Assembly (NCBI GenBank): GCA_900766735.1
Contig: CAAFWO010000017.1
Coordinates: forward strand, 792 to 64,791
Reading direction: 5' to 3'
DNA length: 64,000 nt
DNA from: Clostridia bacterium
GTDB taxonomy: Bacteria > Bacillota > Clostridia > CAKSNL01 > HGM11501
Positions 4,170 through 56,935 of this stretch are shown here, in pieces (the stretch's first letter is position 1; every line of letters begins with the position of its first letter). Both the position numbers and the translations under genes were made by a program. Below the pieces are notes generated by a model, which was given only the letters and a program-made list of their open reading frames with translations, ran no database searches and was not told the origin of the DNA.

Positions 4170-4192
4170 TATTTGCCTCCGATCTCACTGAC

Positions 4193-6127: not shown

Positions 6128-6392
6128 AATCCAAATCCTTTCTTCCCGACCTGTCGCTCTCTATTCTTTTTAATAACGTCGCCGGAGAAATGGGCGATAC
6201 GTATACTCTGTTTTCCTTATCGAGCACATATGACCTCGGAAGGTCAAATGACGTCGTTATGACTTTTTTTCTTTTTTCCGATTCTTTTAAAAATTCCTTG
6301 GTTATCTTTGAAATACTCGTGTTTTCAATGTCGAATATTCCGATAATATCCTCGCTTCTTAAAAGAAAATCTCCCCCTATATGAAGATACAT
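6117..6392 (-). CDS. remB: DUF370 family protein (YaaB/RemB-like), conserved between recF and gyrB in Firmicutes
   Basis: 91 aa in the conserved position and of the expected size. Overlaps the gyrB start by 11 nt. Confidence 0.65.
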
Positions 6393-6395
6393 TTT

Positions 6396-7502: not shown

Positions 7503-8601
7503 TTTTTAATCTAACGGGAAGAACCATTTGAATGAAGGAATCGTTATCTATCGGGCGGATGATACAGGGGCTTAAATTTGAATTGAATTCAAGCTTTGCA
7601 ACGTCCGTTTCCGCGGCCTTTAACGCGTCGTGAATATAGCGGTTGTTAAAGCCGATCTCGGTTTCTTCTCCTTCAAAGGGAATCTCCAATGTGTCGACGA
7701 TCTGACCCGTCGCGGTGATGCACTTTATTATGAGCTCTTTTTGAGTAAAGTGAAATCTTATCGGGCTCTTTGTCTCGTCCGCCGCGATGATGGGCTCACA
7801 GCGCTCAACGCTCTCCATCACGCTTGAAACGGGAATCACAACGCTGTAGTTATTGACTGCCGGAATCGTCTTCTCATAATTTAAGTAATTTCCTTCGATA
7901 AGCCTTGAAACGACCTTTGCGTTTTCCGTCTTTATAGAAACATATCTTTCGGTAAGGCCTATATTTACCTTTGAGTCGTCGTCTCTTAATATTTTAACAA
8001 GCTCACCGAGCGTCTTTCCGGGAACGATGAACGAAAAGTCGCCGCTTGAGGTTACTTTTTCTCTTCTTAAAGCAAGGCGGAATCCGTCAACCGAAACGAC
8101 ATTTAAATTATCTCCTTTAACTTCAAAAAGAGAACCGGTCAAAACTATTCTGCTCTCGTTCTGCGACACGGCATAGAGAGTTCTTCTTATCATATTTTTT
8201 AAGGTTCCCTCTTCTATCGAAAATTCATTTTCCTTTTCGATTTCGGGAACCGAAGGAAATTCATCGTCCGACAGACCCAAAATTTTATATTCGATGTTCT
8301 GGCAGGTGATGACAGCGTTTCTGTTTTCGTTCACCTTTAAGGTCACGGTATCGTTGGGAAGCTTTCTCACAATGTCCATAAAGGTTTTTGCGAGTAAAAC
8401 GATTCCTCCCTCTTCATAAACCTGCGCCGGGATGAGGCACTCTATACCGAGATCCATATCGTTTCCGACTATCGTTAAAGTCTCTGCTTCTGCTTTTATG
8501 TATATTCCCTCCAAAATGGGAAGCGAAGCTTTCTGTGAGACCGCTTTTGAAACGATGTTCAAGGTATTTAAAAGTATTTCCTTCTGACACTGAAAAATCA
8601 T
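7492..8601 (-). CDS. dnaN: DNA polymerase III beta subunit (sliding clamp)
   Basis: 369 aa with three-domain clamp similarity. GGAGAA RBS. Confidence 0.95.
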   Translation of the reverse strand: MIFQCQKEILLNTLNIVSKAVSQKASLPILEGIYIKAEAETLTIVGNDMDLGIECLIPAQVYEEGGIVLLAKTFMDIVRKLPNDTVTLKVNENRNAVITCQNIEYKILGLSDDEFPSVPEIEKENEFSIEEGTLKNMIRRTLYAVSQNESRIVLTGSLFEVKGDNLNVVSVDGFRLALRREKVTSSGDFSFIVPGKTLGELVKILRDDDSKVNIGLTERYVSIKTENAKVVSRLIEGNYLNYEKTIPAVNNYSVVIPVSSVMESVERCEPIIAADETKSPIRFHFTQKELIIKCITATGQIVDTLEIPFEGEETEIGFNNRYIHDALKAAETDVAKLEFNSNLSPCIIRPIDNDSFIQMVLPVRLKNEN

Positions 8602-8800
8602 GACGATTCTCCTTTTCCTTTGGATTGATTTTTTTATAAATAATATATATTTAAATTCAGTAATAGTAGTATGGGTGGATTGTGTGAAAAACTAAATATT
8701 ATGCCCTTTTTTCAAGGGCCTATACATATTTTTTTATGATGAAGAAATGTCTAAATAAAAAGAATTTAAATATCCACAGCCTGTTTAAAAGGTGGACTGA
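8602..8800. promoter_or_regulatory. oriC segment between dnaA and dnaN (incC-like): AT-rich putative DNA unwinding element plus a DnaA box
   Basis: 8615-8670 is about 85% AT (ttgatttttttataaataatatatatttaaattcag). aTATCCACA at 8770-8778 matches the DnaA-box consensus at 8 of 9 positions. Confidence 0.55.
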
Positions 8801-10114
8801 TCAGCTGTTTTTTAAGTCAGTCGTTATTTTATCGATTTTTTCTTTTTTTTCATCATCCTCAGAAATAAAGGTCTCTACCTTTTTTATTGCGTGGATAATG
8901 GTGGAATGATCCTTTCCTCCGAAATATTCCCCTATCTTGTTATAAGACAGTTCGGTTAAATTTTTACAAAGGTAGATTGCAATCTGCCTCGGAACGACAA
9001 TATCCTTTGTCTTTCTTTTTGAGGTGATATCCTCCTCTCTTATTCTGAAAAGGGAAGAAACCGATTTAATTATCATCTCCGGAGTGATTATTCTGGAAGA
9101 GGAGGTAGTTCTGTATTTTTTTATAGCTTCCTTTGCCATATCCAAAGTAATTTCTCTGTTAACGAGCCCGGAATAAGCCGAAAGAGTTTTAAAAACTCCT
9201 TCAAGCTCACGTATGTTCATTGTGATATTGTCGGCAATATACATTAAAATTTCCGTGTCTATATTTATATTCTGGTTTTCTGCCTTTTGCTTTAATATAG
9301 CGACTCTCGTTTCATATTCCGGAGGCTGAATATCTCCTAAATATCCCCATCCGAAACGGGATTTTAATCTTTCCGCAAGGTTGGGAATTTCATTGGGAGG
9401 CCGGTCACTTGACAAAACTATTTGCTTTGAATCCTCGAAAAGAGAATTAAAGGTGTTAAAAAATTCCTCTTCCATGGACACCTTGCCGGCTATAAACTGA
9501 ATATCATCGACAAATAAAGCGTCTATCTTTCTGTATTTTTCACGGAATGAGTCCGTGCTTTTTTTTGCGATGCTCTCTATAAGCTCGACAGTGAATGTTT
9601 CAGCAGTGACAAACAGAGTTTTTAAATTAGGACTGTTTTCGTTTATAAAATTTTCCATCGCGTGCATAAGGTGGGTTTTTCCCAAGCCGACTCCTCCCCA
9701 AATGAATAAGGGATTATAAGCTTTACCGGGTGTTTCTGCCGCGCCGAGAGCAAGTGCATGAGCGAACCTGTTTGAATTTCCGACAACAAAATTATCAAAA
9801 GTATATTTTAAATTGTTTTCTTTTTTTGCAAAAGATTTTTTTTCTTCTTCCTCGGTTTTTTCTTTTTCATCTCCGACTGTGACAAAAATTAAGTAGTTTT
9901 TTCCGGATGCTTCCAAAACGGAGTTTATAATGAGATCCTTATAGCGGTTGTCCAGCATGTTTTTTATAATGTCGGTCTTCACCGAAAGATAAATTTTATC
10001 GTCCGTCATTTTATAAGGAACAACGTCTTTTATCCATGTATTGTAGGAAACGTTCGGAATTTCTTCTTTTATGTATTCACATGATTTTGCCCAAATATCC
10101 GATAATAAGGACAA
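8801..10114 (-). CDS. dnaA: Chromosomal replication initiator protein DnaA (likely TTG start 27 nt inside the longest ORF)
   Basis: AAA+ Walker A (GGVGLGKTHL) and the C-terminal DnaA-box-binding HTH. An AAGGGGG RBS lies 8 nt upstream of the in-frame TTG (start 10114). The longest track ORF (to 10141) has no RBS. Confidence 0.93.
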   Translation of the reverse strand: MSLLSDIWAKSCEYIKEEIPNVSYNTWIKDVVPYKMTDDKIYLSVKTDIIKNMLDNRYKDLIINSVLEASGKNYLIFVTVGDEKEKTEEEEKKSFAKKENNLKYTFDNFVVGNSNRFAHALALGAAETPGKAYNPLFIWGGVGLGKTHLMHAMENFINENSPNLKTLFVTAETFTVELIESIAKKSTDSFREKYRKIDALFVDDIQFIAGKVSMEEEFFNTFNSLFEDSKQIVLSSDRPPNEIPNLAERLKSRFGWGYLGDIQPPEYETRVAILKQKAENQNINIDTEILMYIADNITMNIRELEGVFKTLSAYSGLVNREITLDMAKEAIKKYRTTSSSRIITPEMIIKSVSSLFRIREEDITSKRKTKDIVVPRQIAIYLCKNLTELSYNKIGEYFGGKDHSTIIHAIKKVETFISEDDEKKEKIDKITTDLKNS

Positions 10115-10406
10115 TCTTATAACCCCCTTAATTATCCACAATTGTTTATAAAAGATGTTGAAAACTGTGGATAAACCCTTATTTTTATAACAAAAAGGCT
10201 CTGCGGCTGATTTAAGGTTGTGGATAAGTTATCAACCGCTCTTATATTCATATCTCATATATTATAACAAAAAACTTTCCTTTTTACAAGATTAAATTTA
10301 TTTTTTTTGTGAAAATTTTAATTTTTCGGTTGACAAATAAAATTTTAATATATATAATAAAAAAAAGTCTGTAATTTTTTATTTTACTTTTAAGGAGGTG
10401 TTTTTT
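10115..10406. promoter_or_regulatory. oriC segment upstream of dnaA: three perfect DnaA boxes plus the rpmH promoter
   Basis: TTATCCACA at 10132-10140. TGTGGATAA at 10166-10174 and 10219-10227. The rpmH promoter is TTGACA (10330-10335), a 17-nt spacer, then TATAAT (10353-10358). Confidence 0.7.
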
Positions 10407-10541
10407 GTGCTTAGAACATATCAGCCCAACAAGCTTAAGAGAAAAAAAGTGCATGGATTCAGAAGCAGAATGAGCACTAAAAACGGCAGAAAAGTTCTTT
10501 CGAGAAGAAGAAGACAGGGCAGAAGGGTTCTTTCCGCTTAA
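10407..10541 (+). CDS. rpmH: 50S ribosomal protein L34
   Basis: GTG start following an AAGGAGG RBS. Encodes the 44 aa [44 protein letters not shown]. Absent from the ORF track because it is under 60 aa. Confidence 0.9.
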
Positions 10542-10568
10542 TTTTAAGAAGGAGAGATTATCTTTGGC

Positions 10569-10907
10569 ATGAAAAGTACGCTGTCGCTGAAAAGCAATTC
10601 TATTTTTACAAAACTTTATAAAAAGGGGAGCTGTGAGAAGTCCAGAAGCGTGATAATGTATTATCACAAAAACGGACTTCCTTTTTGCCGGATGGGAATA
10701 ACGGTCAGCAAGAAGATCGGTTCCGCTGTCAAAAGGAACAGAGCCAAAAGGCTTATCAGAGAAAGCTACAGATGCTTTGAAAAATACGCCTCGGGGTACG
10801 ATATTGTTTTTGTTGCAAGAACCATAACGCCCGAGGCCGGGTTTTTTGAAGTGAAAAAGGATATGGAAAGGCTGTTTGAAAAAAGTCTTATGAGGTGTGA
10901 AAAGTGA
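10569..10907 (+). CDS. rnpA: Ribonuclease P protein component
   Basis: 112 aa, basic, in the conserved position after rpmH. Confidence 0.9.
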
Positions 10908-11113
10908 AATATGTTTTTCTTTTTTTTATCAGACTTTATAGAAAATATATTTCTCCTTTGTCAAAGCCTCATTGCAGATTTTACCCCACATGTTCAGCCT
11001 ATGCCTATGAAGCAATAAAAAAATACGGTGCGTTAAAGGGCGGTTTTTTAACCGTTAAAAGAATTCTGAAATGTCACCCTTTTAATGCGGGGGGATATGA
11101 TCCCGTTCCGTAA
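10904..11113 (+). CDS. yidD: Membrane protein insertion efficiency factor YidD
   Basis: 69 aa with the PTCSxYxxEA motif. Overlaps rnpA by 4 nt. Confidence 0.85.
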
Positions 11114-11125
11114 AAAAATGAGGGA

Positions 11126-12031
11126 GTGATTAAAATAATAGATTTTTTCGCTAATATACTCAGCTATATCATTAACCCCATTTACAATCTGGTCGGAAAT
11201 TACGGTGTTGCCGTAATTTTGTTTACTGTTATAGTTAAAGTATTACTTGTCCCGCTCGGTGTTAAGCAGCAAAAGACGATGGTCAAGACCAAGCAGATCA
11301 AGCCCGAGCTTGACAAAATCCAGTCTAAATACAAAAACGATAAAGAAAAGCTCAACGAAGAAACGATGAAGCTTTATCAGAAGTATGACATTAACCCGAT
11401 GGGCGGATGTCTTCCTCTTCTTGTTCAGTTTCCGATTCTTTTGGGTCTTTACAGGGTTATTCAGCACCCCATTAACTGGATTTTAAGAAGTAATCCGGTT
11501 GATGCCATAGAAAAGATAATTACCGAAGGAAAGATGACAGAGTCCGCGGCGGCCGAAGCTCTTCGTTCGCTCTGCGCGTCGGCAGACAAAATTGCCGGCT
11601 TAAACAGTGTGAGCGAGCTTGTCGGAGCGTTTGAAAAGGATGCGTCGCTCGGCGTTACGCAGATAGACATAGCTTCAAAATTCCATCTCGTTAATTTCGA
11701 TTTTCTGGGATTGGATCTGTCGGCAACGCCCTCTATCAGCGAGCTTTCGTGGCTCTGGATAATTCCCATATTTGCAACGGGCGCGGCATTTTTCTCAAAC
11801 TGGGTATCTTCAAAGATCAACCCGATAACGGGAGATCAGGCGCAGACTATGAAGAGCATGAACCTTATGATGCCTTTGATGACGCTGTTTTTCACGTTCA
11901 CTCTTTCGGCAGGTATCGGCGTTTACTGGTTCTTCAGCACGATGTTATCCGTTGCACAGATGTATCTTTTGACAAAGTATTTTGAAAAGAAATATCCTTC
12001 CGTTGCCAATACGGGGAAAGGAAAAAAATAA
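11126..12031 (+). CDS. yidC: Membrane protein insertase YidC/Oxa1 family (start codon uncertain, GTG/ATA region)
   Basis: 301 aa with YidC transmembrane core motifs (GGCLPLLVQFPILLGLY). Confidence 0.88.
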   Translation: MIKIIDFFANILSYIINPIYNLVGNYGVAVILFTVIVKVLLVPLGVKQQKTMVKTKQIKPELDKIQSKYKNDKEKLNEETMKLYQKYDINPMGGCLPLLVQFPILLGLYRVIQHPINWILRSNPVDAIEKIITEGKMTESAAAEALRSLCASADKIAGLNSVSELVGAFEKDASLGVTQIDIASKFHLVNFDFLGLDLSATPSISELSWLWIIPIFATGAAFFSNWVSSKINPITGDQAQTMKSMNLMMPLMTLFFTFTLSAGIGVYWFFSTMLSVAQMYLLTKYFEKKYPSVANTGKGKK

Positions 12032-12687
12032 TGAGATTTGCAGAAAAAAAGGCAAAAACCGTTGACGAAGCGGTAAATCAGGCATTAGCTGAGCTTGGCG
12101 CTTCGAAAGACGAGGTTGATATTGAAATAATTGAAGAGACAAAGGGTCTTTTCGGAATCCTCGGAAGCAAGGAAGTCAAGGTCAGAGTCACATTAAGGGA
12201 AAGAGAAGAAGTGACTCGCGCCAAGGAGTTTATTAAAAATGTGACGGATAAGTTAGGAATGAACATCGAGCAGGAGGCCTCTTATAACGAAGAGGACAAG
12301 CTCTTAAAGATTGAGTTAAAGGGCGAAGAACTTGGCCTTTTGATCGGAAGAAGAGGAGAAACTCTTGACTCTATCCAGTACCTTACAAACATTTTTGTAA
12401 ACAAGAAGTCGGACGATTATGTCAAAGTCACGATCGACGCTGAAAATTACAGGGCGAGAAGAGAAGAAGCTTTGGTATCGCTGGCGAAGAGAACGGCTTC
12501 GAAGGCTGTTAAATACAGAAAAAATATGATAATTGAGCCGAAAAATCCTTACGAGAGAAGAATAATTCACGAGGCTCTTCAGGATTATCCCGAGGTAACG
12601 ACCTATTCAGTCGGAGAGGATCCCAACAGAAAGGTTATTGTGGCCTATAAGGGAATGGCCGGCGGCTACAGAAAAAACCAGGAATAA
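12031..12687 (+). CDS. jag: Jag/KhpB RNA-binding protein (KH + R3H domains)
   Basis: 218 aa in the conserved position after yidC. Confidence 0.85.
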   Translation: MRFAEKKAKTVDEAVNQALAELGASKDEVDIEIIEETKGLFGILGSKEVKVRVTLREREEVTRAKEFIKNVTDKLGMNIEQEASYNEEDKLLKIELKGEELGLLIGRRGETLDSIQYLTNIFVNKKSDDYVKVTIDAENYRARREEALVSLAKRTASKAVKYRKNMIIEPKNPYERRIIHEALQDYPEVTTYSVGEDPNRKVIVAYKGMAGGYRKNQE

Positions 12688-12736
12688 TTTAAAGAAGCGG
12701 CTTTTAAAGCCGCTTCTTATTTTAAGGGAGAAAAAA

Positions 12737-14086
12737 ATGTCTGAAACAATTGCGGCGATAAGCACAGCGCCGGGAAAAGGCGGAATTTCAATAATCAGAA
12801 TAAGCGGCGACAATGCTATTTTAACGGCGGACAAGGTATTTTGCGGCAAAAAAAGACTTGCCGATGCGAAAACGCACACCATCCACTACGGAAAAATCGT
12901 TTCCGGCGGCAAGGTGATTGACGAGTGCCTCTGCTCGGTAATGAGAGCGCCCTTAAGCTATACCACGGAGGACGTTGTCGAGATAAACGTCCACGGCGGA
13001 GTGTATTCGGCCGAGATGACGCTTAAAGCTGTCTTGGGTGCAGGAGCAAGGCCGGCAAAGCCCGGCGAATTTACGCTTCGCGCCTTTATGAACGGAAGGA
13101 TTGACCTTTCGGAGGCCGAGGCCGTCGGAGATATTATAGATTCAAAGACGGCGCTTGCACAGTCAACGGCCGTCAACCAGCTCGAAGGAAAATTAAAAGA
13201 GCCCGTCAACAATTTAAGAAAAAGGTTAGTTGAGATTCTGGGCTATATCACCGTCTCGTCCGACTTTCCGGACGAAGACCCGGACTCACTTTCCGGGATC
13301 GACATCAAAAAAGAAATTGAGAATATAAAAAAAGAAACTGAAATTATCTTAAATAATGCCGACAGGGGTATTATCATAAGAGATGGCGCTCTTTGCGCCA
13401 TCTGCGGCAAGCCAAACGTCGGAAAATCGTCGCTCTTAAACGCACTGACGGGAACTGACCGCGCGATAGTGACTGAGATCGAGGGCACGACGCGCGACGT
13501 TATCGAGGAATACATCAACATAAAGGGCGTTCCGGTGAAGCTGGCGGACACTGCCGGGATCCGCGAAAAAGCGGACGAGGTGGAAAAGATCGGCGTCAAA
13601 AAGGCGAAGGAGTATATCGATAAGGCCGACCTTTGCATTTTTGTGGCCGACAATTCAAGAAAATTTGAAAAAGAGGACGCGGAGATATTCTCGCTCCTTA
13701 AAAATAAAAAGGTGATAACAGTATTAAATAAGTCGGAGCTTGAAAATGAGTGCACTCTCCCCCCTTATATCTTAAATCCGGTTAAAATTTCGGTAAGAAC
13801 GGGAGAAGGCATAGCCGAGCTTACCGACAGGATATATGATGAGCTTATGGGAGAAGAGTTTTCGTCCGACTCGGTTTTGATCACGAACGGAAGACATAAA
13901 GAGGCGCTCGCCTTTGCCGATTCCGAGATCGGGAAGGCACTCACCGAGCTTGAAAGCGGCGCGCCGGTCGACCTTTGCTCGATATATTTGGAGAGCGCCG
14001 TGTCGCACCTTGGCGAAATCACGGGAATGACCGTATCTGACGAGGTCATAGGCGAGGTATTTTCAAAGTTTTGCATAGGAAAATAG
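12737..14086 (+). CDS. mnmE: tRNA modification GTPase MnmE (start at MSETIAA with AAGGGAG RBS; the longer track ORF is an upstream extension)
   Basis: G1-G4 GTPase motifs (GKPNVGKSSLLN, DTAG, NKSE) and the C-terminal CIGK. Confidence 0.93.
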   Translation: MSETIAAISTAPGKGGISIIRISGDNAILTADKVFCGKKRLADAKTHTIHYGKIVSGGKVIDECLCSVMRAPLSYTTEDVVEINVHGGVYSAEMTLKAVLGAGARPAKPGEFTLRAFMNGRIDLSEAEAVGDIIDSKTALAQSTAVNQLEGKLKEPVNNLRKRLVEILGYITVSSDFPDEDPDSLSGIDIKKEIENIKKETEIILNNADRGIIIRDGALCAICGKPNVGKSSLLNALTGTDRAIVTEIEGTTRDVIEEYINIKGVPVKLADTAGIREKADEVEKIGVKKAKEYIDKADLCIFVADNSRKFEKEDAEIFSLLKNKKVITVLNKSELENECTLPPYILNPVKISVRTGEGIAELTDRIYDELMGEEFSSDSVLITNGRHKEALAFADSEIGKALTELESGAPVDLCSIYLESAVSHLGEITGMTVSDEVIGEVFSKFCIGK

Positions 14087-14096
14087 GTGAATTTTA

Positions 14097-15971
14097 ATGG
14101 AATATTTTAACGCAGGTAAATATGACGTTGCCGTCATCGGCGCGGGGCATGCCGGTTGCGAAGCGGCGCTTGCCGCCGCCAGAATGGGCTGTTCTGTCGT
14201 GATGTTTTCCGTGAATCTTGACGCGGTGGCCAATATGCCGTGTAATCCGCACATCGGCGGAACGGCGAAAGGACACCTGGTTAGGGAGATAGACGCGCTC
14301 GGCGGCGAGATGGGAAAAGCGGCGGACGAGACTTATATTCAGATAAAGATGCTGAACCTCGGCAAAGGGCCGGCCGTTCATTCTCTTCGCGCGCAGATCG
14401 ACAGAATGAAGTACCGCGAGAGAATGAAGCACACGATCGAGCTTCAGGACAACCTTGACTTAAAGCAGGGTGAGGTCATTGACATCAGGTTTGAGGACAA
14501 AAAGGTGAAGTCAGTCGTCACGGCGACGGGCGCGGTTTACGATGTTAATTCGTGCATTATCGCGACCGGAACATATTTAAACGGCCGCATAGTAATAGGC
14601 GAGTTAAAGATCGACGGCGGACCGGACGGGATGATGCCGGCAAAGGGACTGTCGGACAGCCTCATAAAGGCCGGGGTGCGCCTCATGCGGTTTAAGACGG
14701 GCACACCGTCGCGCTTAAACAGGAAAAGCGTGGACTTTTCGAAAATGGAGCACCAGGACGAAAAAGATCCTCCCCTCCCATTCTCGTTTGAGACCGAAAA
14801 TATGCGCCCGAGCACGGCGGACTGCTACATCACATATACAAATGCCGAGACTCATAGGATAATAAGGGACAACATCGAAAGAGCGCCGCTTTTCAATAAA
14901 TCCATCAAGGGCACGGGGCCGAGATACTGCCCCTCGATCGAGGATAAGGTGATGCGCTTTGCGGACAAGCAGCGTCACCAGATATTTATCGAGCCGATGG
15001 GCGAAAACACGGAGGAGCTCTATGTTCAGGGAATGTCGTCAAGCTTGCCTGAAGACGTGCAGATAAAGATGCTCCACTCGATAAAAGGGCTTGAAAATGC
15101 GAAAATTCAGCGAAATGCCTATGCCATCGAGTATGACTGTTTGGACCCGACTCAGCTTAAGTCCACTCTTGAATTTAAGAAAATATCCGGCCTTTTCGGC
15201 GCGGGGCAGTTTAACGGAAGCTCCGGCTATGAAGAGGCGGCGTGCCAGGGTCTTATGGCCGGCATCAACGCGGCGCTGAAGGTGAAAAACAAGCCCCCCT
15301 TTGTGCTCGACCGGTCGGAGGCATATATCGGCGTACTTATAGACGATCTTACGATCAAGGGAACGCCCGAGCCTTACAGAATGCTCACCTCGCGTGCGGA
15401 ATACCGCCTTTTGCTCCGCCAGGACAACGCGGATTTAAGGCTTACCGAAAAAGGCCACGAGCTGGGACTTATTTCGGACGGGCGCTACAATGCTTTTTTA
15501 GAGAAAAAGCGCCTTATCGAGCAGGAAATAGAACGCTGCGAGAAGAAAAACATCTCCCCGTCGGAGGCAAACCCGGTGTTAGAGCGGTTTTCGAGCACTC
15601 CCATCACGACGGGCTTTAAGTTAGGCGAGCTAATAAGAAGGCCGGAGCTTAACTATTTTGTGTTAAAAGACGCGGATTCCGACAGGCCGCCTCTTCCCTA
15701 TGCGGTCTGCGAGGAGGTCAACATCGCGGTCAAATACGACGGATATATAAGGATGCAGAAAGAACAGGTCGAGGCGTTCCGAAAGCTTGAAAAAAGAAAG
15801 ATTCCGGCAGATACGGACTATAACCTCATAAGCGGCCTAAAAAAAGAGGCGCGCGAAAAGCTCATCAAGGCAAAGCCGGAAAACATCGGTCAGGCCGGCA
15901 GAATTTCCGGCGTTTCCCCGGCCGACATCGCGGTTTTATACATCTATCTTGACCAGAACAAAAGAGGGTGA
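14097..15971 (+). CDS. mnmG: tRNA uridine 5-carboxymethylaminomethyl modification enzyme MnmG (GidA)
   Basis: 624 aa with the FAD-binding N-terminus ([15 protein letters not shown]). Confidence 0.95.
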
Positions 15972-16666
15972 TCGCCATAGAAAACATTTATCCCGTTAAG
16001 ATTTCAGAAGAGGCCTATTTAAATCTTGAAAAATATGCCGACCTTTTGACGGAACATAACAAATATATGAACCTCACCGCCATAACAAAGAGAAGAGAGA
16101 TCCGCGTGAAGCATTTTGCGGACTGCCTTTCGCTTTTAACGCTCGGAATCATTAAAGAGAATATGACCGTTGCGGATGTGGGCACGGGAGCGGGCTTTCC
16201 GGGTCTGCCGGTAAAGATCGCAGTGCCCTCCCTATCTGTCACGCTTATCGACGCACTTGAAAAAAGGGTGAACTTTCTAAACACGGTGATAGGCGCACTT
16301 AAATTGGAAAATATCACGGCAGTCCATAAAAGAGCGGAGGACGCCGGGCAGGACGGTTCGCTTCGCGAAAGCTTTGACATTGCGCTTTCCCGTGCGGTCG
16401 CGCCGCTTTCGGTGCTCTCGGAATATTGCCTTCCCTTGGTGAAACCGGGCGGATATTTTTTGGCAATGAAGGGTCCTGAGCCCGAAACCGAGGCGGACGG
16501 GGCAAAGGGAGCAATAAAAGAGCTCGGCGGCGAAATTGAAAAAATTAAAAGGCTCACCATTGCCGAAGAGATGACCCACAGCGTTGTGATAATAAAAAAA
16601 ATATCGCAAACACCGCAAAAATATCCCAGAAAAGCGGGCAAACCGGCAAAAAGCCCGTTAAAGTGA
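15968..16666 (+). CDS. rsmG: 16S rRNA (guanine527-N7)-methyltransferase RsmG (GidB)
   Basis: 232 aa with a SAM-methyltransferase fold ([10 protein letters not shown]). Overlaps mnmG by 4 nt. Confidence 0.9.
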
Positions 16667-16749
16667 CACTTTAAAGGCGAAAAAGGGCGAAAACTTATTA
16701 TTTACAAAAACTGGAAAAGGTGCTATTATGGAATTGTTCAAAAGATAGC

Positions 16750-16787
16750 ACGAAAACCGCTTTTGAATGAAAGCGGTTTTTCTTTTT
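16750..16787 (+). terminator. Hairpin (aaaccgctttt / aaagcggttt) + T-run, 3 nt before the noc RBS
   Basis: 10-bp stem with a 6-nt loop, followed by TTTTCTTTTT. A candidate sigma-A promoter (TTTACA-17-TATTAT, about 16703-16731) lies upstream of it. Confidence 0.45.
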
Positions 16788-16800
16788 AAGGAGGATATTA

Positions 16801-17619
16801 ATGATAAGCGCCGTGTTTTCGGAGGAAATACCGAAAAAAGTTATTGACATACCGCTCGAAAGGATCGAGACGAACCCCACACAGCCGAGACGGTTTTTTG
16901 ACCTTGAGGCGCTGGCGGAGCTTGCCGCATCGATCGACGAGTACGGAGTCATTCAACCGATAACCGTTAAAAAGAAGGCGAACGGAAGCTTTTTGATAAT
17001 TGCCGGCGAGAGAAGATACCGTGCAAGCTGTATGGCGAAAAAGCGCACCATTCCGGCGATAGTCGTTAATTTGAGCGATTCTGAAAGCGCCGCGATAGCG
17101 CTTCTGGAAAACCTTCAGCGAAAGGACCTGACCTTCTTTGAGGAGGCCGAGGGCTATGCACGTCTCATGAACGAGTATAATATGACGCAGGACGAGCTTT
17201 CAGAAAAGCTCGGAAAAAGCCAGTCCTCGATCGCGAACAAGCTAAGGCTCTTAAAGCTTGACGACGAATCAAAGACCGCGATATTCGAAGCCGGGCTCAC
17301 GGAAAGGCACGCGAGGGCGCTTCTAAAGCTCGCGAACAAAAAAAGCAGAGAGAAAGCTCTTAAGCTGATAATAGAGAAAAAACTCAATGTCGCAAAGGCC
17401 GAAAACCTTATTGACCGCCTGGCGGAGGACGAGGCGGAAAGCAAACGCCTCAACGCCTTCAAGGCAGTGATGAGTGAGGATGCGAAAAAGCAGAAGATTT
17501 TTTGCAACACGGTCAATAAGGCAATCCGACTTCTGGACAAGTCCGGCATAAAGACCGAGATAGAACAGGCCGAGGACGAGGAAAACTATATCTACACGAT
17601 CAGCATCAAAAAAAGCTGA
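16801..17619 (+). CDS. noc: ParB-family nucleoid occlusion protein (Noc-like paralog of Spo0J)
   Basis: 272 aa with the ParB N-terminal motif (GERRYRA) and an HTH. Sits in the conserved rsmG-noc-soj-spo0J order. Confidence 0.75.
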   Translation: MISAVFSEEIPKKVIDIPLERIETNPTQPRRFFDLEALAELAASIDEYGVIQPITVKKKANGSFLIIAGERRYRASCMAKKRTIPAIVVNLSDSESAAIALLENLQRKDLTFFEEAEGYARLMNEYNMTQDELSEKLGKSQSSIANKLRLLKLDDESKTAIFEAGLTERHARALLKLANKKSREKALKLIIEKKLNVAKAENLIDRLAEDEAESKRLNAFKAVMSEDAKKQKIFCNTVNKAIRLLDKSGIKTEIEQAEDEENYIYTISIKKS

Positions 17620-17661
17620 ACCGGAGAGGTTCTTCATTAACCCCCTTCTTCCTGCGCGGAG

Positions 17662-17677
17662 TGTTTCACGTGAAACA
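17662..17677. promoter_or_regulatory. parS site (TGTTTCACGTGAAACA, perfect consensus) within a 32-bp perfect palindrome 17654-17685
   Basis: Exact match to the Firmicute parS consensus. Flanked by gcgcggag / ctccgcgc. Confidence 0.85.
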
Positions 17678-17698
17678 CTCCGCGCAATTATTTTTAAA

Positions 17699-17714
17699 TG
17701 TTTCACGTGAAACG
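17699..17714. promoter_or_regulatory. Second parS site (TGTTTCACGTGAAACg, 15/16)
   Basis: Lies 37 bp downstream of the first parS and upstream of parA. Confidence 0.8.
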
Positions 17715-17776
17715 ATTGCAATTTAAATTAAAGTGTGATATACTTATAAAGACGATTAAACGAAAAGAGGAACGCT

Positions 17777-18541
17777 ATGGGGAAAGTGATAGCACTCGCC
17801 AATCAGAAGGGCGGCGTCGGCAAAACGACGACAGCGGTGAATTTGAGCGCCGCGCTTGCCGAAAAGGGCAAAAAGATACTTCTTATCGATTCCGACGCAC
17901 AGGGCAACGCCACAAGCGGACTCGGAATCAAGATCGAAAAAGGCGGAAAAACGCTTTACAATGTTATAACGGAAGAAGAACCGATGAGCTCCGCGATAGT
18001 GAAGACGGCGTATGACCGCCTTTATGTTTGCCCGTCGGATGTTGAGCTTTCCGGTGCGGAGATCGAGCTTGTGGATGCGCCCGACCGTGCACATCGGCTT
18101 AAGAATGCGCTTTCCGGAATAAAAAACGATTACGATTTCATTTTGATAGACTGTCCCCCGTCGCTCGGACTGGTGACGCTTAACGCGCTCGCCGCGGCGG
18201 ACACGGTTTTGGTTCCTATTCAGTGCGAGTTTTACGCGCTGGAGGGTTTGGCGCTCTTAACGGGGACGATCAAGCGCGTTAAAAAAAGCATAAATCCCGA
18301 CATTGAATTTGAGGGGGTGCTCTTAACGATGTTCAACGGAAGGGCCAACCTCTCAATTCAGGTTGCCGACGAGGTTAAAAGATATTTCCGCGAGAAGGTC
18401 TATAAAACAGTGATTCCGCGAAATATCAGGCTTTCGGAAGCGCCGGGCTTCGGAGAATCGGTGCTGACATACGATTCGCGCTCTAAGGGCGCGGAAAGCT
18501 ACCGCGCGTTGGCTGACGAGGTTATTAAATATAACAGATAA
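17777..18541 (+). CDS. soj: Chromosome partitioning ATPase ParA (Soj)
   Basis: 254 aa with the deviant Walker A KGGVGKTT. Confidence 0.93.
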   Translation: MGKVIALANQKGGVGKTTTAVNLSAALAEKGKKILLIDSDAQGNATSGLGIKIEKGGKTLYNVITEEEPMSSAIVKTAYDRLYVCPSDVELSGAEIELVDAPDRAHRLKNALSGIKNDYDFILIDCPPSLGLVTLNALAAADTVLVPIQCEFYALEGLALLTGTIKRVKKSINPDIEFEGVLLTMFNGRANLSIQVADEVKRYFREKVYKTVIPRNIRLSEAPGFGESVLTYDSRSKGAESYRALADEVIKYNR

Positions 18542-18551
18542 CGAAAGGAAA

Positions 18552-19424
18552 ATGGCTATGGCGAAAAAGGGACTCGGAAGAGGGCTTGACGCGCTTCTTC
18601 CGACAGAAGATGAGGCCGTTGAAAGCGGGAATAAGGAATTTATCACTGTGGCGACGGCTTTTGTTGAGCCGAACAGAAAACAGCCGAGAAAGCATTTTGA
18701 CGAGGAGGAGCTTTCAGCACTCTCGGAATCGGTCAAAAGGTACGGCGTGCTTCAGCCGATAACGGTCAAGGATGAAAAAAACGGATTTTACACGATCATC
18801 GCCGGGGAGAGACGGTGGAGAGCCGCGAAAATGGCGGGGCTTTCCGAGGTTCCGGTGCGTATCGTTGATTTTTCCTCGCTTGAGGAGCTTGAGGTTTCGC
18901 TTATCGAGAACCTTCAGAGGACCGACCTTGACCCTGTCGAAGAGGCGATGGGCTATAAGCGGCTGATGGAGGAGCACATGCTTACGCAGGAGGAGGTCTC
19001 CAAAAAGGTCGGCAAAAGCAGAAGTGCGGTTGCCAACGCTTTGAGAATACTCGCTCTTCCCGAAAATGTGAGGGAGCTTCTGATAGAAAAAAAGATCTCC
19101 GCCGGCCACGCGAAGGCGATCTTGATGGTCAATGACAGTAAAAAGCAGGAGCTTTTGGCCGAAAGGATCGTTTCGGAGGGCCTTTCCGTGAGAAGCGCGG
19201 AAAGCATAGCGGCGATGCTTAACTCCGAAAAGGCGAAAAAGGCGCCTTCAAAGAAACACGAGAAAACGCCGGAGGTCAAGGATCTTGAAAAGAGCCTGTC
19301 CGACAGCCTCGGCACAAAGGTCTTGCTTGAGGAGAAGAAAAAAGGCGGAAAGATCGAGATCGAGTATTATGACAAGGATCAGTTAGAGGCTATAATCGGC
19401 TACCTTAAAGGGTATCAAAGATAG
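18552..19424 (+). CDS. spo0J: Chromosome partitioning protein ParB (Spo0J)
   Basis: 290 aa with the GERRWRAA ParB box and an HTH. Confidence 0.93.
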   Translation: MAMAKKGLGRGLDALLPTEDEAVESGNKEFITVATAFVEPNRKQPRKHFDEEELSALSESVKRYGVLQPITVKDEKNGFYTIIAGERRWRAAKMAGLSEVPVRIVDFSSLEELEVSLIENLQRTDLDPVEEAMGYKRLMEEHMLTQEEVSKKVGKSRSAVANALRILALPENVRELLIEKKISAGHAKAILMVNDSKKQELLAERIVSEGLSVRSAESIAAMLNSEKAKKAPSKKHEKTPEVKDLEKSLSDSLGTKVLLEEKKKGGKIEIEYYDKDQLEAIIGYLKGYQR

Positions 19425-31903: not shown

Positions 31904-32062
31904 TATGTGCGTAAAGGCTCCCTCATCAGATGGAGGCATTTGACCACCCCACCCACGCTAATGCACCCATCTCTTTGTAACAATTCACTCACCCGTCCGC
32001 GGAACACTTTGCCGCTCTAATGTTACAAAACGGTGACAAATGAAGAAAAATCGCAAAAAAGC

Positions 32063-35299: not shown

Positions 35300-35580
35300 G
35301 TGCGCTTTCAAAGGCTCACCCGGAGTTTGGTTAAGGCGCAATAAGGCTCCCCCTGGGGGAGCTGTCAAAACCGCAGGGTTTGACTGAGGGATATGGGATT
35401 TGCACCCACTCCGATAGTACACCGTAGGGCACGGCGGTTTCCGACGTGCCGACCGTTTTGCACACACCTCGGTTCGTCGTAAACGCCGAACCCTACGATT
35501 TGCACCCACTCCACTGATGCACCCGTAGGGGATGGCGTCCCCGACATCCCGATAATTTTAAGAACAAAAAAGGGGAACAA
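35300..35580. repeat. Cluster of modular intergenic palindromic repeat elements (family shared with 31905-31960 and 40320-41100)
   Basis: gatttgcacccactcc occurs twice. A 29-nt core gtagggcacggcggtttccgacgtgccga is identical to 40923-40951. A ~45-bp unit gagtttggttaaggcgcaataaggctccccctgggggagctg is homologous to 40631-40677 and 40789-40832. Confidence 0.65.
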
Positions 35581-35642: not shown

Positions 35643-35718
<76 letters not shown>

Positions 35719-39286: not shown

Positions 39287-40282
39287 ATGTACAAAGCAAG
39301 TGAAAAACGATATGCAAAAATGCAATATGCCCACTGTGGAAAGAGCGGCTTGAAATTGCCGAAAGTTTCGCTCGGATTGTGGCATAATTTCGGAAATACC
39401 GCTTCTTTTGATAATATGACGGCGCTGTGCACAACGGCGTTTGACCACGGAATAACGCATTTCGACCTCGCGAATAACTACGGGCCCGAACCCGGCAGAG
39501 CGGAGATTAATTTCGGTAAGATATTGAAGGAAAATTTCCTCCCCTACCGTGACGAGATGATAATTAGCACCAAGGCCGGCTATGATATGTGGGAAGGCCC
39601 TTACGGAAACTGGGGCAGCAGAAAATATCTGATCGCGAGCCTTGACCAGAGCTTGAAGAGAATGGGCATCGATTATGTGGACATTTTCTACCACCACAGA
39701 CCCGATCCGGAGACTCCGCTTGAGGAAACGATGGGTGCGCTGGACTATGCGGTGAAGAGCGGCAAGGCACTCTATGCCGGGTTGTCCAACTACAACGGCG
39801 AGATGATGGAGCGTGCGGCGGAGATTCTGGAGCGTTTGAACTGCCCGTTCGTAATCAATCAGAACCGCTATTCGATTTTTGACCGCACGATCGAGCAGAA
39901 CGGATTGAAGAAGACTGCCGAGAGATGCGGAAAGGGTATAATCGCATTCAGCCCTCTTGCTCAGGGCACGCTGACCGACCGCTATCTTAATGGCATTCCG
40001 GAGGACAGCAGAATAAAGACGGACGGCAGATTCTTAAAAGCGTCGATCCTGACGGAAGAGAGACTGTCGGAGATTAAACAGCTTAACGATGTTGCGCGCC
40101 GCCGCGGCCAGACTCTGGCTGAGATGGCTCTTGCCTGGGTGCTTAAGGATAACGCGGTGACGAGCGTGCTTATCGGCGCGTCCAAACCGGAGCAGATTCT
40201 GGATAATATTAAGGCGATCAATAACAACAACTTTACGGAGGCGGAGCTCCGCGAGATCGATGCGATCTGCCAGATAGTATAA
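39287..40282 (+). CDS. Aldo/keto reductase (L-glyceraldehyde 3-phosphate reductase YghZ/Gpr-like)
   Basis: 331 aa with the AKR catalytic tetrad region (DLANNYG..., HRPD). Confidence 0.88.
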   Translation: MYKASEKRYAKMQYAHCGKSGLKLPKVSLGLWHNFGNTASFDNMTALCTTAFDHGITHFDLANNYGPEPGRAEINFGKILKENFLPYRDEMIISTKAGYDMWEGPYGNWGSRKYLIASLDQSLKRMGIDYVDIFYHHRPDPETPLEETMGALDYAVKSGKALYAGLSNYNGEMMERAAEILERLNCPFVINQNRYSIFDRTIEQNGLKKTAERCGKGIIAFSPLAQGTLTDRYLNGIPEDSRIKTDGRFLKASILTEERLSEIKQLNDVARRRGQTLAEMALAWVLKDNAVTSVLIGASKPEQILDNIKAINNNNFTEAELREIDAICQIV

Positions 40283-40284
40283 TA

Positions 40285-40318
40285 AAAACCCCCGTGATTT
40301 TCATCACGGGGGTTTTAG
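40285..40318 (+). terminator. Rho-independent terminator
   Basis: cccccgtga ttttca tcacggggg followed by TTTT. Confidence 0.8.
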
Positions 40319-40319
40319 A

Positions 40320-41100
40320 ACAACGCACTATGCATAGTGTCGTAACACGGATAGGCAGTGTAATGACATGGTACACAGTTTTGCATTAAAATGCGTGCAA
40401 AATAACCGTGTGCTGGTCTCCAAAGTATCACGGGTTTCGCACATTCACTCCACTCATGCACCTGTAGGACGCTCACGGTTCCCGACGTGCCGAGTGTGCT
40501 TTTCGGGTTGAATGCACCGTAGGGTCGATTCTCAGAATCGACCGGTTAATAATTTGTTCACCTTTGGCATATCCTCCCTCCGCCTTCGGCTCCACCCTCC
40601 TTTACACAAGGAGGGCTTTAAACTTCCGCAAAGGTTTGGAGAGAACATTTAAAGGCTCCCTTGCCCAAAGGGAGCTGGGTTTTGCATAGCAAAACTCTGA
40701 GGGGTAGTTATAAGGCCGTCTCTCCCTCCGTCAAAACCTGACGGTGTTGCCACCTCACTCATCAGATGGAGGCATTTAAGCATCCGCCGAGGTTTGGATA
40801 GTGCATTTAAAGGCTTCCTCTAAGGAGGCTCCGCCGGTAGGCGGTGGTGAGGGGGCGATGTGGGCAACGGGTCGTCGAGGACGCCAACCTCTACGGGTTA
40901 GCGGTCACATATTTGGTGCATTGTAGGGCACGGCGGTTTCCGACGTGCCGAATGCGAACTTAAAATTCTCTCCCTCCGTCTCGGCTGCGCCGAGCCAGCT
41001 CCCTCGTCAGAGGGAGCCCTTTGCGCTTGCTTTTTCAGTGCACCGCAGGGGATGGCGTTCCCGAAATTCCGAAACCTATAAAAACTCGTATTTTTTGACA
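40320..41100. repeat. ~800-bp gene-free region densely packed with modular hairpin repeats (same family as 31905-31960 and 35300-35580)
   Basis: No credible ORF. At least four repeat modules recur. These are TGCACC-GTAGGG + hairpin (x4), the ggtttggaKag...aaaggctYcc-loop-ggagc unit (x2), TCTCCCTCCG + hairpin (x3) and ctcatcagatggaggcattt (x1). Confidence 0.65.
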
Positions 41101-41236
41101 TTTGCCTGAGCTAAGTGCGCATCAAAATAACAAAAAAATAAAGAATTAAACTTATTTAAAAGCAAAAAATTAAAGGCATATTGCAAACACTGATGATATA
41201 ATGTAGACAGTTCACAAAAATGACGGGGGAATGAAT

Positions 41237-42235
41237 ATGGAGAGAAACCAGAATCCGGCGAAGCACACACTTGACCTGATCAGGGCGACAGAGCCCGCGA
41301 TGCGCTACCGCGGCGGCGACTTTGAAAAATGGCAGAAGGACGCGCGCGAAAAGCTCATTGAGCTTTTGAGAATGCCTGCTCCGGCGAAGGACGACGCGCT
41401 TTTGATCGAGTATGAAAAGGACGAAGAAACCTATCACGAGACGAGGTTTACCTTCAGGAGCGAGGAGGGCTATTTCGTGCCGACGCACCTTTTGGTGCCG
41501 AAAAACGCGAAGGGCAAGGTGCCTGTCGCGATCTGCCTTCAGGGACATTCGCGCGGAATGCACATATCGCTCGGACGGCCGAAATACCCTGGCGACGAGG
41601 CGGACATTTCCGGCGTAGACCGTGACTTTGCCGTCGGCGCGCTTGAAAAAGGCTTTGCCGCGCTTGCGATCGAACAGCGCGGAATGGGCGAATGCGGCGG
41701 AACGGAACGCGGCCCGGCCTGCCAGCTTCATACGATGGCGAACCTTCTGATCGGCAGAACGACCATCGGGGAGCGCGTGTTGGACATCTCACGCGCGATC
41801 GACGTTTTGATAAAGCATTTTGACGCGATCGACCCCGACAATATAATCTGCGTCGGCAACTCCGGCGGCGGAACGGCGACTTTTTATGCCGCGTGCGTTG
41901 ATGAGCGCATTAAAACCGCAATCCCGAGCTGTGCATTCGCAAGCTATGACGATTCGATCGCCGCGATGCTCCACTGCACCTGCAACTTTATCCCGAACAT
42001 CAGAAACTACTTTGACATGGGCGACCTTTCGGGGCTTATCGCGCCGAGAAACCTCATAATCGTGTCCGGCAAGGAAGACCCTATCTTTCCCATCGATTCG
42101 GCAAAGAAATGCTTTGAGATCACAAAAGAGCTCTATTCGCACACAAACGGCACGGCCGTTCACGTTATCGGGCCGGAGGGCCACCGCTTTTACAAAAAAG
42201 CCGCGTGGGAGGCTTACGACAAAATTACAAAATGA
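41237..42235 (+). CDS. Alpha/beta hydrolase fold esterase (GNSGGG nucleophile elbow; acetylxylan-esterase/dienelactone-hydrolase-like)
   Basis: The G-x-S-x-G motif in an a/b-hydrolase context. Preceded by the extended -10 TGaTATAAT. Confidence 0.72.
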   Translation: MERNQNPAKHTLDLIRATEPAMRYRGGDFEKWQKDAREKLIELLRMPAPAKDDALLIEYEKDEETYHETRFTFRSEEGYFVPTHLLVPKNAKGKVPVAICLQGHSRGMHISLGRPKYPGDEADISGVDRDFAVGALEKGFAALAIEQRGMGECGGTERGPACQLHTMANLLIGRTTIGERVLDISRAIDVLIKHFDAIDPDNIICVGNSGGGTATFYAACVDERIKTAIPSCAFASYDDSIAAMLHCTCNFIPNIRNYFDMGDLSGLIAPRNLIIVSGKEDPIFPIDSAKKCFEITKELYSHTNGTAVHVIGPEGHRFYKKAAWEAYDKITK

Positions 42236-56766: not shown

Positions 56767-56774
56767 ATTAAAAA

Positions 56775-56935
56775 AAGAGTAGGGCGAGGTGAAATTCCTC
56801 ACCGGCGGTAATGAGCGTTTATGCTACGAGTCCGAGAGCGAAAGCTGATTTGGGTCAGATTCCCGAACCGACGGTAAAGTCCGGATGAAGAACTCACTTT
56901 TATGAGAGGCGCCTTTTTAAGGGCGCTTTTTTTGT
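56775..56935 (+). ncRNA. FMN riboswitch (RFN element) with terminator expression platform
   Basis: Conserved RFN segments GGGCGAGGTGAAATTCCTCACCGGCGGTAA, AGTCCGAGAGCGAAAG and CCGACGGTAAAGTCCGGATGAAGA. Followed by the hairpin aggcgcc/gggcgct and T7. Confidence 0.85.

Follow-up and report, generated by a model that had tools for sequence, protein, structure and literature searches.

Three copies of a C-rich motif, each running directly into a hairpin whose stem differs from those of the other two, lie at positions 40571-40995 of a 64,000-nucleotide (nt) stretch of DNA from a human-gut Clostridia bacterium (GenBank assembly GCA_900766735.1, contig CAAFWO010000017.1). The whole stretch that was analysed is called the window; the organism has a G+C content of 48.6%. 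What kind of element keeps a hairpin while its stem sequence changes? The initial annotation of these sites expected an RNA-level or protein-recognised hairpin rather than plain duplication. Our analysis suggests that each of the three sites is a copy of an interspersed DNA repeat, small and palindromic, which we call module M, and not a functional RNA; we put the probability of this at about 0.6. Module M would belong to a mosaic family like repetitive extragenic palindromes (REPs), the bacterial interspersed mosaic elements (BIMEs) and the Neisseria intergenic mosaic elements (NIMEs).

The sequence agrees with the description of three copies of a motif ending in CCG with an immediate hairpin and differing stems. 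Copy 1 reads ATCCTCCCTCCG and then GCC-TTC-GGC; the hairpin is there, but its loop had been misdrawn, because one G was counted twice, and the stem has only 3 bp. Copies 2 and 3 share CTCTCCCTCCG, followed by (CC)GTCA-AAACC-TGAC(GG) in copy 2 and by TCTCGGC-TGC-GCCGAG in copy 3. When folded as single-stranded DNA (ssDNA), every site formed two hairpins (z from −2.8 to −4.1; Table 1). The hairpins first noticed are the 5' halves of units of about 50 nt, and a second hairpin follows each of them. In addition, copies 1 and 2 each form the left arm of an inverted doublet of about 140 nt; the two are tandem paralogues of a composite of about 150 nt, with 74% identity over 70 nt (direct repeat D1).

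We counted the motif itself in the window. The 10-mer TCTCCCTCCG occurred twice against 0.17 expected (two were reached in 1 of 100 shuffles), and the 8-mer TCCCTCCG occurred four times against 1.97 expected (four were reached in 10 of 100 shuffles), three of the four lying within 400 nt. Chance is weakly excluded from the motif alone; the whole module gives strong evidence.

Structure of module M and pairing in its stems

Module M is about 50 nt long and consists of a leader, A(A/C)(T/C)CCCTC(A/C)G, followed by hairpin 1, hairpin 2 and usually C(T)TT. The leader is C-rich and ends in CGTC or AGTC, and a CCA or CAG tail follows hairpin 1. Hairpin 2, C(A/C)(G/C)CTCCC-loop-GGGAG(C/G), is more conserved than hairpin 1. 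Conservation ends sharply about 3 nt 5' of the leader and about 5 nt 3' of hairpin 2. Two forms were distinguished: alpha, CCCTCAG ... CAGCTCCC ... GGGAGC, and beta, CCCTCCG ... CCACCTCCC ... GGGAGG.

The search patterns with which viral contigs were scanned fixed only the leader and hairpin 2, and the 6-30 nt between them were left free. At least 132 distinct alpha and at least 133 distinct beta copies were found. In 90% of the alpha copies the free stretch paired into a perfect stem of 4 bp or more (12% in shuffles; 46 different stems); for the beta copies the rate was 74% (13% in shuffles; 49 different stems). The beta rate is really higher than 74%, because the stem often takes in the flanking G and C. 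The claim that the hairpin is kept while the stem sequence varies is supported for the family at large. In alignment A1, 97.1% of the cells paired against 79.7% in shuffles, and 41 cells carried double changes; this was reached by none of 500 shuffles, and pairing collapsed in all slid controls. Covariation was also seen at the inner pairs of hairpin 2. The commonest stem of hairpin 1 has 5-6 bp (usual range 4-7 bp), the loops are mostly of 3 nt (TNC), and the second pair was C-G in 120 of 122 copies.

The motif by itself is no predictor of a hairpin. Among 101 distinct TCTCTCCCTCCGTC sites in the viral contigs, 18 are family members and 83 are not; a perfect stem of at least 5 bp was present in 12 of the 18, whereas the remaining sites had one in 3 of 83, which is the background (87 of 2000). 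Enrichment for a hairpin is confined to the members of the family. A covariance model was built from 24 viral-contig copies unrelated to the window, and it recovered six copies of M in the window, all within two intergenic regions (Table 1).

Alpha and beta copies are often joined as inverted doublets. In the window, the doublets A/A' and B/B' are each about 140 nt long with leaders that pair, and the motifs of A and A' pair to close a multi-branched fold (composite z = −4.6). Doublets were also found in loci L124, L034 and L134. They end in inverted CCCTC(A/C)G...C(T/G)GAGGG, as in the 13-bp repeats of L134. [quoted passage not shown]

In its sequence, the leader CTCCCTC directly repeats the 5' arm of hairpin 2, and its number of C tracks the number of C in the hairpin-2 arm across subfamilies (AAT/TT, ACT/TC, xAC/CT, xCC/CC). 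In the viral-contig copies, the identity of the 2-3 nt 5' of CCCTC(A/C)G goes closely with that of the loop and inner pairs in hairpin 2: AAT occurs with TTTACACAA, ACT with TCAGAGA, TCT with TCGTCAGA, xAC with CTTTCAG and xCC with CCAGAGG. The same subfamilies were found in the alpha and in the beta forms. This linkage may come from a leader that can pair alternatively with the 3' arm, or from shared descent alone.

A second module, R, consists of GTAG-tagged palindromes in which the loop GCGKyyyCGA is conserved and the 4-bp stems covary (GATG/CATC, CACG/CGTG, TTCG/CGAA); examples are GTAGGGCACGGCGGTTTCCGACGTGCCGA and GTAGGGGCGAT-gaaa-ATCGCCC. A conserved 5' extension, GATTTGCACCCACTCC...GCACC, is often present. 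In the window, R modules lie within 35424-35552, 40464-40543, 40868-40951 and 41045-41072. GTAGG followed by a hairpin was 4.8-fold enriched within 300 nt of M, against 1.3-fold for a control tag. R is REP-like in the strict sense and fits the definition of GTAG-REPs.

Strain variation, distribution and the locus

The three sites share one intergenic spacer of 955 nt (40283-41237). We compared this spacer over strains with an identical or near-identical protein from the upstream aldo/keto-reductase gene, which gave 11 haplotypes. Its length ranged from 803 to 1170 nt, with conserved flanks and a rearranged centre, and its divergence was 39 differences per 250 nt against 0-8 per 250 nt in the flanking genes. 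Doublet B is missing in haplotype L209; it is replaced by TCTCTCCCTCCG, 38 nt and CGGAGGGAGAGA in L210 and L217; and copy B is also rearranged in L218, which has 200 additional nt. L212 carries an additional R(−)R(+) block. Two unrelated alleles, GCCTTCGGC and TTTTTAT-TTC-ATAAAAA, occur at hairpin 1 of copy 1, and the loop of the central hairpin has three alleles, which are found shuffled between doublets A and B. Copy 3 combines a beta-leader CCG with an alpha body, and its motif is CCCTCAG in 9 of the 11 haplotypes. Between doublets A and B there is a 12-nt indel, AACCGTGCGTTC (L003/L210-L218 versus window 40714), which makes a mini-hairpin GAAC-cgtgc-GTTC; a similar spacer, TAGTTATAAGACGTGCGTCC, links M(−) to M(+) in the second intergenic region of some strains.

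The second spacer ranged from 663 to 1656 nt over nine haplotypes. Strains differ in the presence of an extra M(+), whose leader is unchanged and whose stem, GTTTTTC/GAAAAAC, is again a different one. In L330, M(−) occurs as three tandem copies, and the window copy unites hairpin 2 of the first with hairpin 1 of the second. Hairpin 1 is swapped in L335. In L334 (3590-4770, corresponding to about 35300-35560 of the window), a 432-nt block of M(−), M(+) and R occurs three times, which brings the spacer from 664 to 1656 nt. The SLH-domain protein encoded upstream of this spacer varies from 964 to 982 amino acids (aa) among strains.

The clusters therefore vary through whole modules, which are gained, lost, amplified in tandem or exchanged. 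Breakpoints lie within conserved blocks of 7-9 nt (GGGAGCTG, CTGAGGG and the R core), and within the species most single-base changes in stems have no compensating partner. The strain haplotypes indicate that, at the scale of a population, different stems with the same structure arise through exchange of whole cassettes and not through paired point mutations. The view that the pattern speaks against plain duplication is not supported here: copies 1 and 2 are tandem paralogues, and hairpin differences within the species come from the exchange of whole hairpins.

A covariance-model scan of 1.2 Mb of named genome loci, a small sample, gave matches limited to Faecalibacterium prausnitzii, one Faecalibacterium metagenome-assembled genome (MAG) and one Clostridia MAG; none was obtained in the Lachnospiraceae, Bifidobacterium or Treponema loci of this sample. 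Faecalibacterium prausnitzii has four copies in 21 kb, which form two inverted doublets. A plasmid search found an R-rich cluster with an M variant 3' of a terminator in Vescimonas fastidiosa (Oscillospiraceae), and an alpha/beta doublet adjoining sul2 on conjugative plasmids of Klebsiella and Enterobacter. In Klebsiella pneumoniae plasmid pKP13f (NZ_CP004000.1; locus L449), the doublet lies at 1497-1660, its beta arm has CCTTCC instead of CCCTCC, and the segment also encodes rsmH and tgt. This segment looks like gut-Clostridia DNA captured by an enterobacterial resistance plasmid.

Matches in the phage collection were confined to unannotated faecal phage records without host names. Phage contig L023 (2780-9311) encodes a P22-like portal protein, a DUF859 protein and an endolysin, and it carries M units and GTAGGGGCGAT-gaaa-ATCGCCC units in intergenic regions; there were 11 pattern matches in 12.8 kb, and one region had three tandem units of about 158 nt. 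A metagenome scan with a locus-specific 25-mer gave no matches. We found no description of the M family in the searchable literature, whose coverage is incomplete, so that this is no proof of novelty. Module M is a widespread, apparently unnamed repeat family of gut Clostridia (Faecalibacterium, Vescimonas and relatives) and their phages.

The features of the window are collected in Table 1. All three of its clusters start just 3' of a strong terminator. The promoter-like −10 box 3' of the three-site cluster was not among the sites listed by a consensus promoter scan. The chromosomal replication origin region lies at 1659-19424, with gyrA, gyrB, recF, dnaN and dnaA on the minus strand and yidC, jag, mnmE, mnmG, rsmG, noc/parB, parA and parB on the plus strand, and GC skew turns from negative to positive at about 8-12 kb. 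From these positions, the three sites lie about 30 kb into the right replichore, where plus is the leading strand. Rfam also placed a flavin mononucleotide (FMN) riboswitch at 56771-56901 (+; 77.1 bits) and three tRNA genes at 1249-1402 (−) and 35646-35718 (−). An open reading frame (ORF) of 251 aa with IF-3 domains overlaps the start of the riboswitch in antisense; its true start is probably further downstream.

Table 1. Repeat modules and neighbouring features in the window (bits and E values are from the covariance model)
Feature	Position	Strand	Remarks
Remnant of M hairpin 2, GGCTCCCTCATCAGATGGAGGC	31910-31941	+	Directly 3' of a terminator; 20-nt exact match to 40758-40777
M copy, alpha	35342-35396	−	Best in window, 42.5 bits, E 1e-9; second intergenic region, 3' of a terminator; strain-polymorphic
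R module	35424-35452	+	Flanks the M copy at 35342-35396
R module	35469-35496	−	Flanks the M copy at 35342-35396
R module	35525-35552	+	Flanks the M copy at 35342-35396
Aldo/keto-reductase gene	39287-40282	+	Pfam annotation; 5' neighbour of the three-site spacer
Intrinsic terminator of the aldo/keto-reductase gene	40285-40316	+	Perfect 14-nt inverted repeat AAAACCCCCGTGAT/ATCACGGGGGTTTT; repeat cluster starts 3' of it
R module, GTAG-tagged palindrome GTAGGACGCTCACGGTTCCCGACGTGCCGA, REP-like	40464-40493	+	Read from the sequence; direct repeats D4/D6 link it to 40934-40954
R module, GTAGGG then perfect hairpin GGTCGATTCT-C-AGAATCGACC	40519-40543	+	Inverted repeat I9
M copy A (copy 1), beta-like	40570-40622	+	Match 40570-40619, 18.3 bits, E 0.003; fold z = −4.1; CCTCCCTCCG, hairpin 1 GCC-TTC-GGC, CCA tail, hairpin 2 CCCTCCTT-tacac-AAGGAGGG
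Spacer of doublet A, small central hairpin CCGCAAAGG	40623-40650		Loop alleles GCAAAG, GCTTCG and GCCGAG among strains
M copy A', alpha	40651-40709	−	Inverted partner of copy A; 30.4 bits, E 1.8e-6; CCCCTCAG, hairpin 1 GTTTTGC-TAT-GCAAAAC, then CCAGCTCCCTT...AAGGGAGCC
M copy B (copy 2), degenerate beta	40718-40778	+	Match 40718-40776, 10.1 bits, E 0.44; fold z = −2.8; TCTCTCCCTCCG, hairpin CCGTCA-aaacc-TGACGG, CCA tail, decayed hairpin 2 CCTCACTCATCAGATGGAGG
M copy B', degenerate alpha-like	40809-40859	−	Inverted partner of copy B; 8.5 bits, E 1.2; collinear with A' in 70-nt direct repeat D1
R module, reversed (CTAC, reverse complement of GTAG)	40868-40896	−	Similar to 35469-35496
R module GTAGGGCACGGCGGTTTCCGACGTGCCGA	40923-40951	+	29-nt identity with 35424-35452
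M copy C (copy 3)	40966-41022	+	Match 40966-41021, 35.6 bits, E 7e-8; fold z = −3.8; TCTCTCCCTCCG, hairpin 1 CTCGGC-TGC-GCCGAG, then CCAGCTCCCTC-gtca-GAGGGAGCC
R-like module, tag altered to GCAG, GCAGGGGATGGCGTTCCCGAAATTCCGA	41045-41072	+	Direct repeats D4/D7; similar to 35525-35552
Extended −10 promoter-like box TGATATAAT	41194-41202	+	Before the hydrolase gene; cluster stops upstream; judged by eye
Hydrolase gene	Start 41231/41238 (ATG 41238)	+	3' neighbour of the three-site spacer

DNA repeat or cis-acting RNA

Covariation of stems would also be given by a cis-acting RNA, for example hairpins in untranslated regions (UTRs) that protect mRNA ends from exonucleases, or weak terminators or attenuators. 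We consider this explanation unlikely. G·U pairs are nearly absent, which argues against it: the stem cells are Watson-Crick in 622 of 665, with three G·T and six A·C, and the G·U share in folding was 0.6-0.8% for the motif strand and 1.2-3.9% for its complement. Nor is there an orientation bias. Both orientations of M stand side by side in one intergenic region of the window, all adjacency types are present among M neighbour pairs, and of the non-ORF copies between co-directional genes, as given by a crude ORF caller, 23 run with and 17 against the flanking genes. Few copies have a T-tract (at least five T within the 9 nt that follow hairpin 2): 5 of 132 in alpha and 12 of 133 in beta. On this ground, M was rejected as an intrinsic terminator or attenuator.

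Position argues in the same direction. The window clusters stand 3' of strong terminators, and the three-site cluster stops before the promoter-like box. M also occurs in frame within a 3329-aa ORF of viral contig L067 (2254-2298), where it encodes TPSVTFGDSSLREGA in a low-complexity linker; among the relatives of this ORF, P0008 also has the M peptide and P0002 is without about 26 residues there. The M units in the intergenic regions of phage L023 and the clustering of M with R modules likewise favour a DNA repeat. The uncompensated stem changes within the species, noted above, are a further point against an RNA. Rfam had no match in the region at gathering score when the window was searched, and only chance-level matches were obtained there at E values up to 10. 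Other candidates were rejected as well. The sequence CTGATGAG, which recalls a hammerhead ribozyme, occurs at 31922 and in copy 2 on the reverse strand, but it is a mere loop variant of hairpin 2 (tcatcaga, tcgtcaga), without GAAA or stem III. An attC site or a CRISPR array was rejected on its architecture.

The points that favour an RNA are the following. The composition of the hairpin 1 loops is strand-asymmetric: the motif strand has TNC in 155 of 264 loops, that is, GNA on the complement, and it has GNA in 2 of 264. These loops also count among the DNA-level signs; the triloop C-GNA-G is a very stable mini-hairpin motif of DNA. As a repeat of the 5' arm of hairpin 2, the leader could pair with the 3' arm GAGGGAG in competition with that arm, and because the number of C in the leader matches the hairpin-2 arm across subfamilies, such a pairing of 5-7 bp is always possible. 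In Faecalibacterium, some doublets come directly 3' of a stop codon, or else in the interval from a −10-like box to a ribosome-binding site. These probable UTR positions and the matched C-run of the leader mean that RNA-level effects are possible in some contexts, and REPs are known to stabilise mRNA (PMC3733652).

Of the two possibilities named in the initial annotation, the RNA-level hairpin is disfavoured by the low G·U content (at most 0.8% on the motif strand), the balanced orientation, the clusters 3' of terminators and the Rfam search. The protein-recognised hairpin remains the best reading if the hairpin is taken as ssDNA. M units would then spread, now or once, as ssDNA hairpins handled by an enzyme that recognises structure, the most likely candidate being a REP-associated transposase of the Y1/HUH type. 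If only copies that keep the hairpin are propagated, covariation would follow without any RNA function. M and R would both be selfish or neutral DNA repeats of the REP type, and their clusters would build up at neutral spots 3' of terminators. Recombination between copies at the conserved blocks would expand and contract the clusters and shuffle the hairpin cassettes, and effects on neighbouring transcripts would be by-products.

Several points weigh against M as a DNA repeat of this kind. No transposase or REP-associated tyrosine transposase (RAYT) gene was found near any copy; the window ORFs tested had no Y1 domain, and the gene calls of the strain loci included no such gene. No clean pair of empty and filled sites with exact element ends was found, and recombination alone can account for every polymorphism seen. 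The strand asymmetry of the loops indicates some strand-specific constraint, which an RNA could give likewise. Some Faecalibacterium doublets lie within probable 3' or 5' UTRs, and, compared with its homologue, the in-frame copy of L067 is no clean indel of 15 codons. The statistics on ORF overlap and orientation, used only for the orientation ratio and the L067 case, come from the crude ORF caller, which is unreliable in GC-rich contigs. We also searched for a parent element as alpha(+)...beta(−) pairs 0.3-5 kb apart; this returned adjacent clusters only and no candidate transposon.

A more specific proposal is that M and R together are an uncatalogued REP-type system of Oscillospiraceae/Ruminococcaceae and their phages, in which alpha and beta would serve as left and right ends, recognition would take place on ssDNA, and the blocks of 7-9 nt would be the recombination joints. 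We put this forward tentatively, as a proposal that is somewhat more likely to fail than to hold.

It might also be that the M/R clusters are kept for chromosome organisation, as duplex or cruciform platforms bound by gyrase, nucleoid-associated proteins or DNA polymerase I. Binding of these proteins has been reported for the BIMEs of Escherichia coli. The mosaic BIME-like architecture with alternating orientations would suit such a function, as would the position of the window about 30 kb from the chromosomal origin of replication (oriC), and strict Watson-Crick palindromy on both strands fits recognition of a cruciform or duplex. However, the content and length of the clusters vary widely within the species and whole doublets are lost, which argues against a position-specific function for the host. 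The same units also occur in phages and in a Klebsiella plasmid fragment, and no binding protein is known. We judge this explanation improbable.

That the pattern is only chance likeness, or local tandem duplication with random decay and without meaning for a family, is scarcely credible: the motif alone is weakly over-represented, copies 1 and 2 are tandem paralogues and most TCTCTCCCTCCGTC sites in the viral contigs are chance matches without a hairpin, but a model from unrelated contigs recovers window copies at E values of 1e-9 to 3e-3, more than 260 distinct copies exist in viral contigs, hairpins are far more frequent than in shuffles, and copies are present in Faecalibacterium and Vescimonas.

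Likeness to known repeats and significance

Module M has the features of a REP in the broad sense: it is a short palindrome with many, mostly intergenic copies, pairing is kept while stems vary, and copies form inverted dimers and mosaics. Di Nocera et al. (2013; PMC3733652) described a CGTC-tagged REP superfamily, including dRS3 of Neisseria in NIME mosaics, with an unpaired CGTC at the foot of a GC-rich hairpin and an unpaired CCA tail. Beta copies of M accordingly read ...CCCTC-CGTC-stem-loop-stem-CCA-CCTCCC. The tag at the hairpin foot is CCGTC in beta and in window copies 2 and 3, CAGTC in alpha and CCGCC in copy 1; TGTC and CCTC variants are allowed in the superfamily (PMC3733652). CCA follows hairpin 1 in all three window copies and was preset in the beta search pattern, whereas alpha has CAG and, in a minority, CCAG. 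Like M, the superfamily falls into subfamilies whose stems differ by complementary changes, forms dimers and large mosaic clusters between genes, interleaved with other repeats, lies occasionally in frame within genes and has no known dedicated transposase (PMC3733652). Its stems, however, have 8-9 bp and start with two A-T pairs, and its loops have 4-5 nt (PMC3733652). M differs further in that it always has a second conserved hairpin and a C-rich leader, and in alpha, AGTC and CAG replace CGTC and CCA. Firmicutes and Clostridia are nowhere mentioned in the text of that survey (PMC3733652). REP-associated transposases of Group 1 have been reported in Clostridia (PMC5581495).

The REPs and BIMEs of E. 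coli and the REP doublets of Pseudomonas known as REPINs, which are mobilised by RAYT (TnpA-REP) Y1 transposases, are likewise short intergenic palindromes with a conserved tag, and the R modules carry their canonical GTAG(GG) followed by a hairpin. M shares with them inverted doublets of 90-140 nt, mosaic clusters, a position downstream of genes and variation between strains. In contrast, where these repeats carry their GT[AG]G tag, 0-2 nt 5' of the hairpin foot, M has CGTC or AGTC, no RAYT gene was found beside any cluster, and its stems within one genome are far more diverse than the near-identical REPIN populations.

Two other systems are similar in part. The pneumococcal BOX element (boxA-boxB-boxC; PMC3049150), also from Firmicutes, is a modular, hairpin-forming intergenic repeat of a Gram-positive host with a variable number of internal modules and no transposase of its own; it has no sequence similarity to M, and its modules are conserved in sequence, without the combination of conserved flanks and free stems. 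In the attC sites of integrons, which are recognised as single-stranded hairpins, conserved short boxes surround a stem with conserved structure and non-conserved sequence, as in M. However, M has no gene cassettes between its units and no R''/L''...L'/R' boxes, it occurs in both orientations in one cluster, and neither an integrase nor attI was seen beside the clusters that were examined.

The family is a caution, because the clear stem covariation seen here most likely comes from a selfish DNA element with cassette exchange and not from a functional RNA. Important gut commensals (Faecalibacterium, Vescimonas and relatives) and their phages carry M repeats in abundance, and the repeat clusters make intergenic regions hypervariable among strains of one species. 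The repeats are likely to break assemblies. M units can occur within real genes, and they may also seed spurious ORF calls, because the reverse strand is free of stops in at least one frame, as worked out by hand. Naming and modelling M would improve annotation and give markers for strain typing and for phage-host relations.

The concept of REPs and BIMEs would extend to gut Clostridia, a group absent from the tagged-REP survey of 2013. If M and R do form an uncatalogued REP-type system, exchange of hairpin cassettes yields structural diversity faster than point mutation, and the repeats would be a useful strain marker and a link between phages and hosts. If a dedicated enzyme, of the Y1/HUH type or another, exists as well, this would be a new pairing of REP and transposase in Gram-positive gut commensals.

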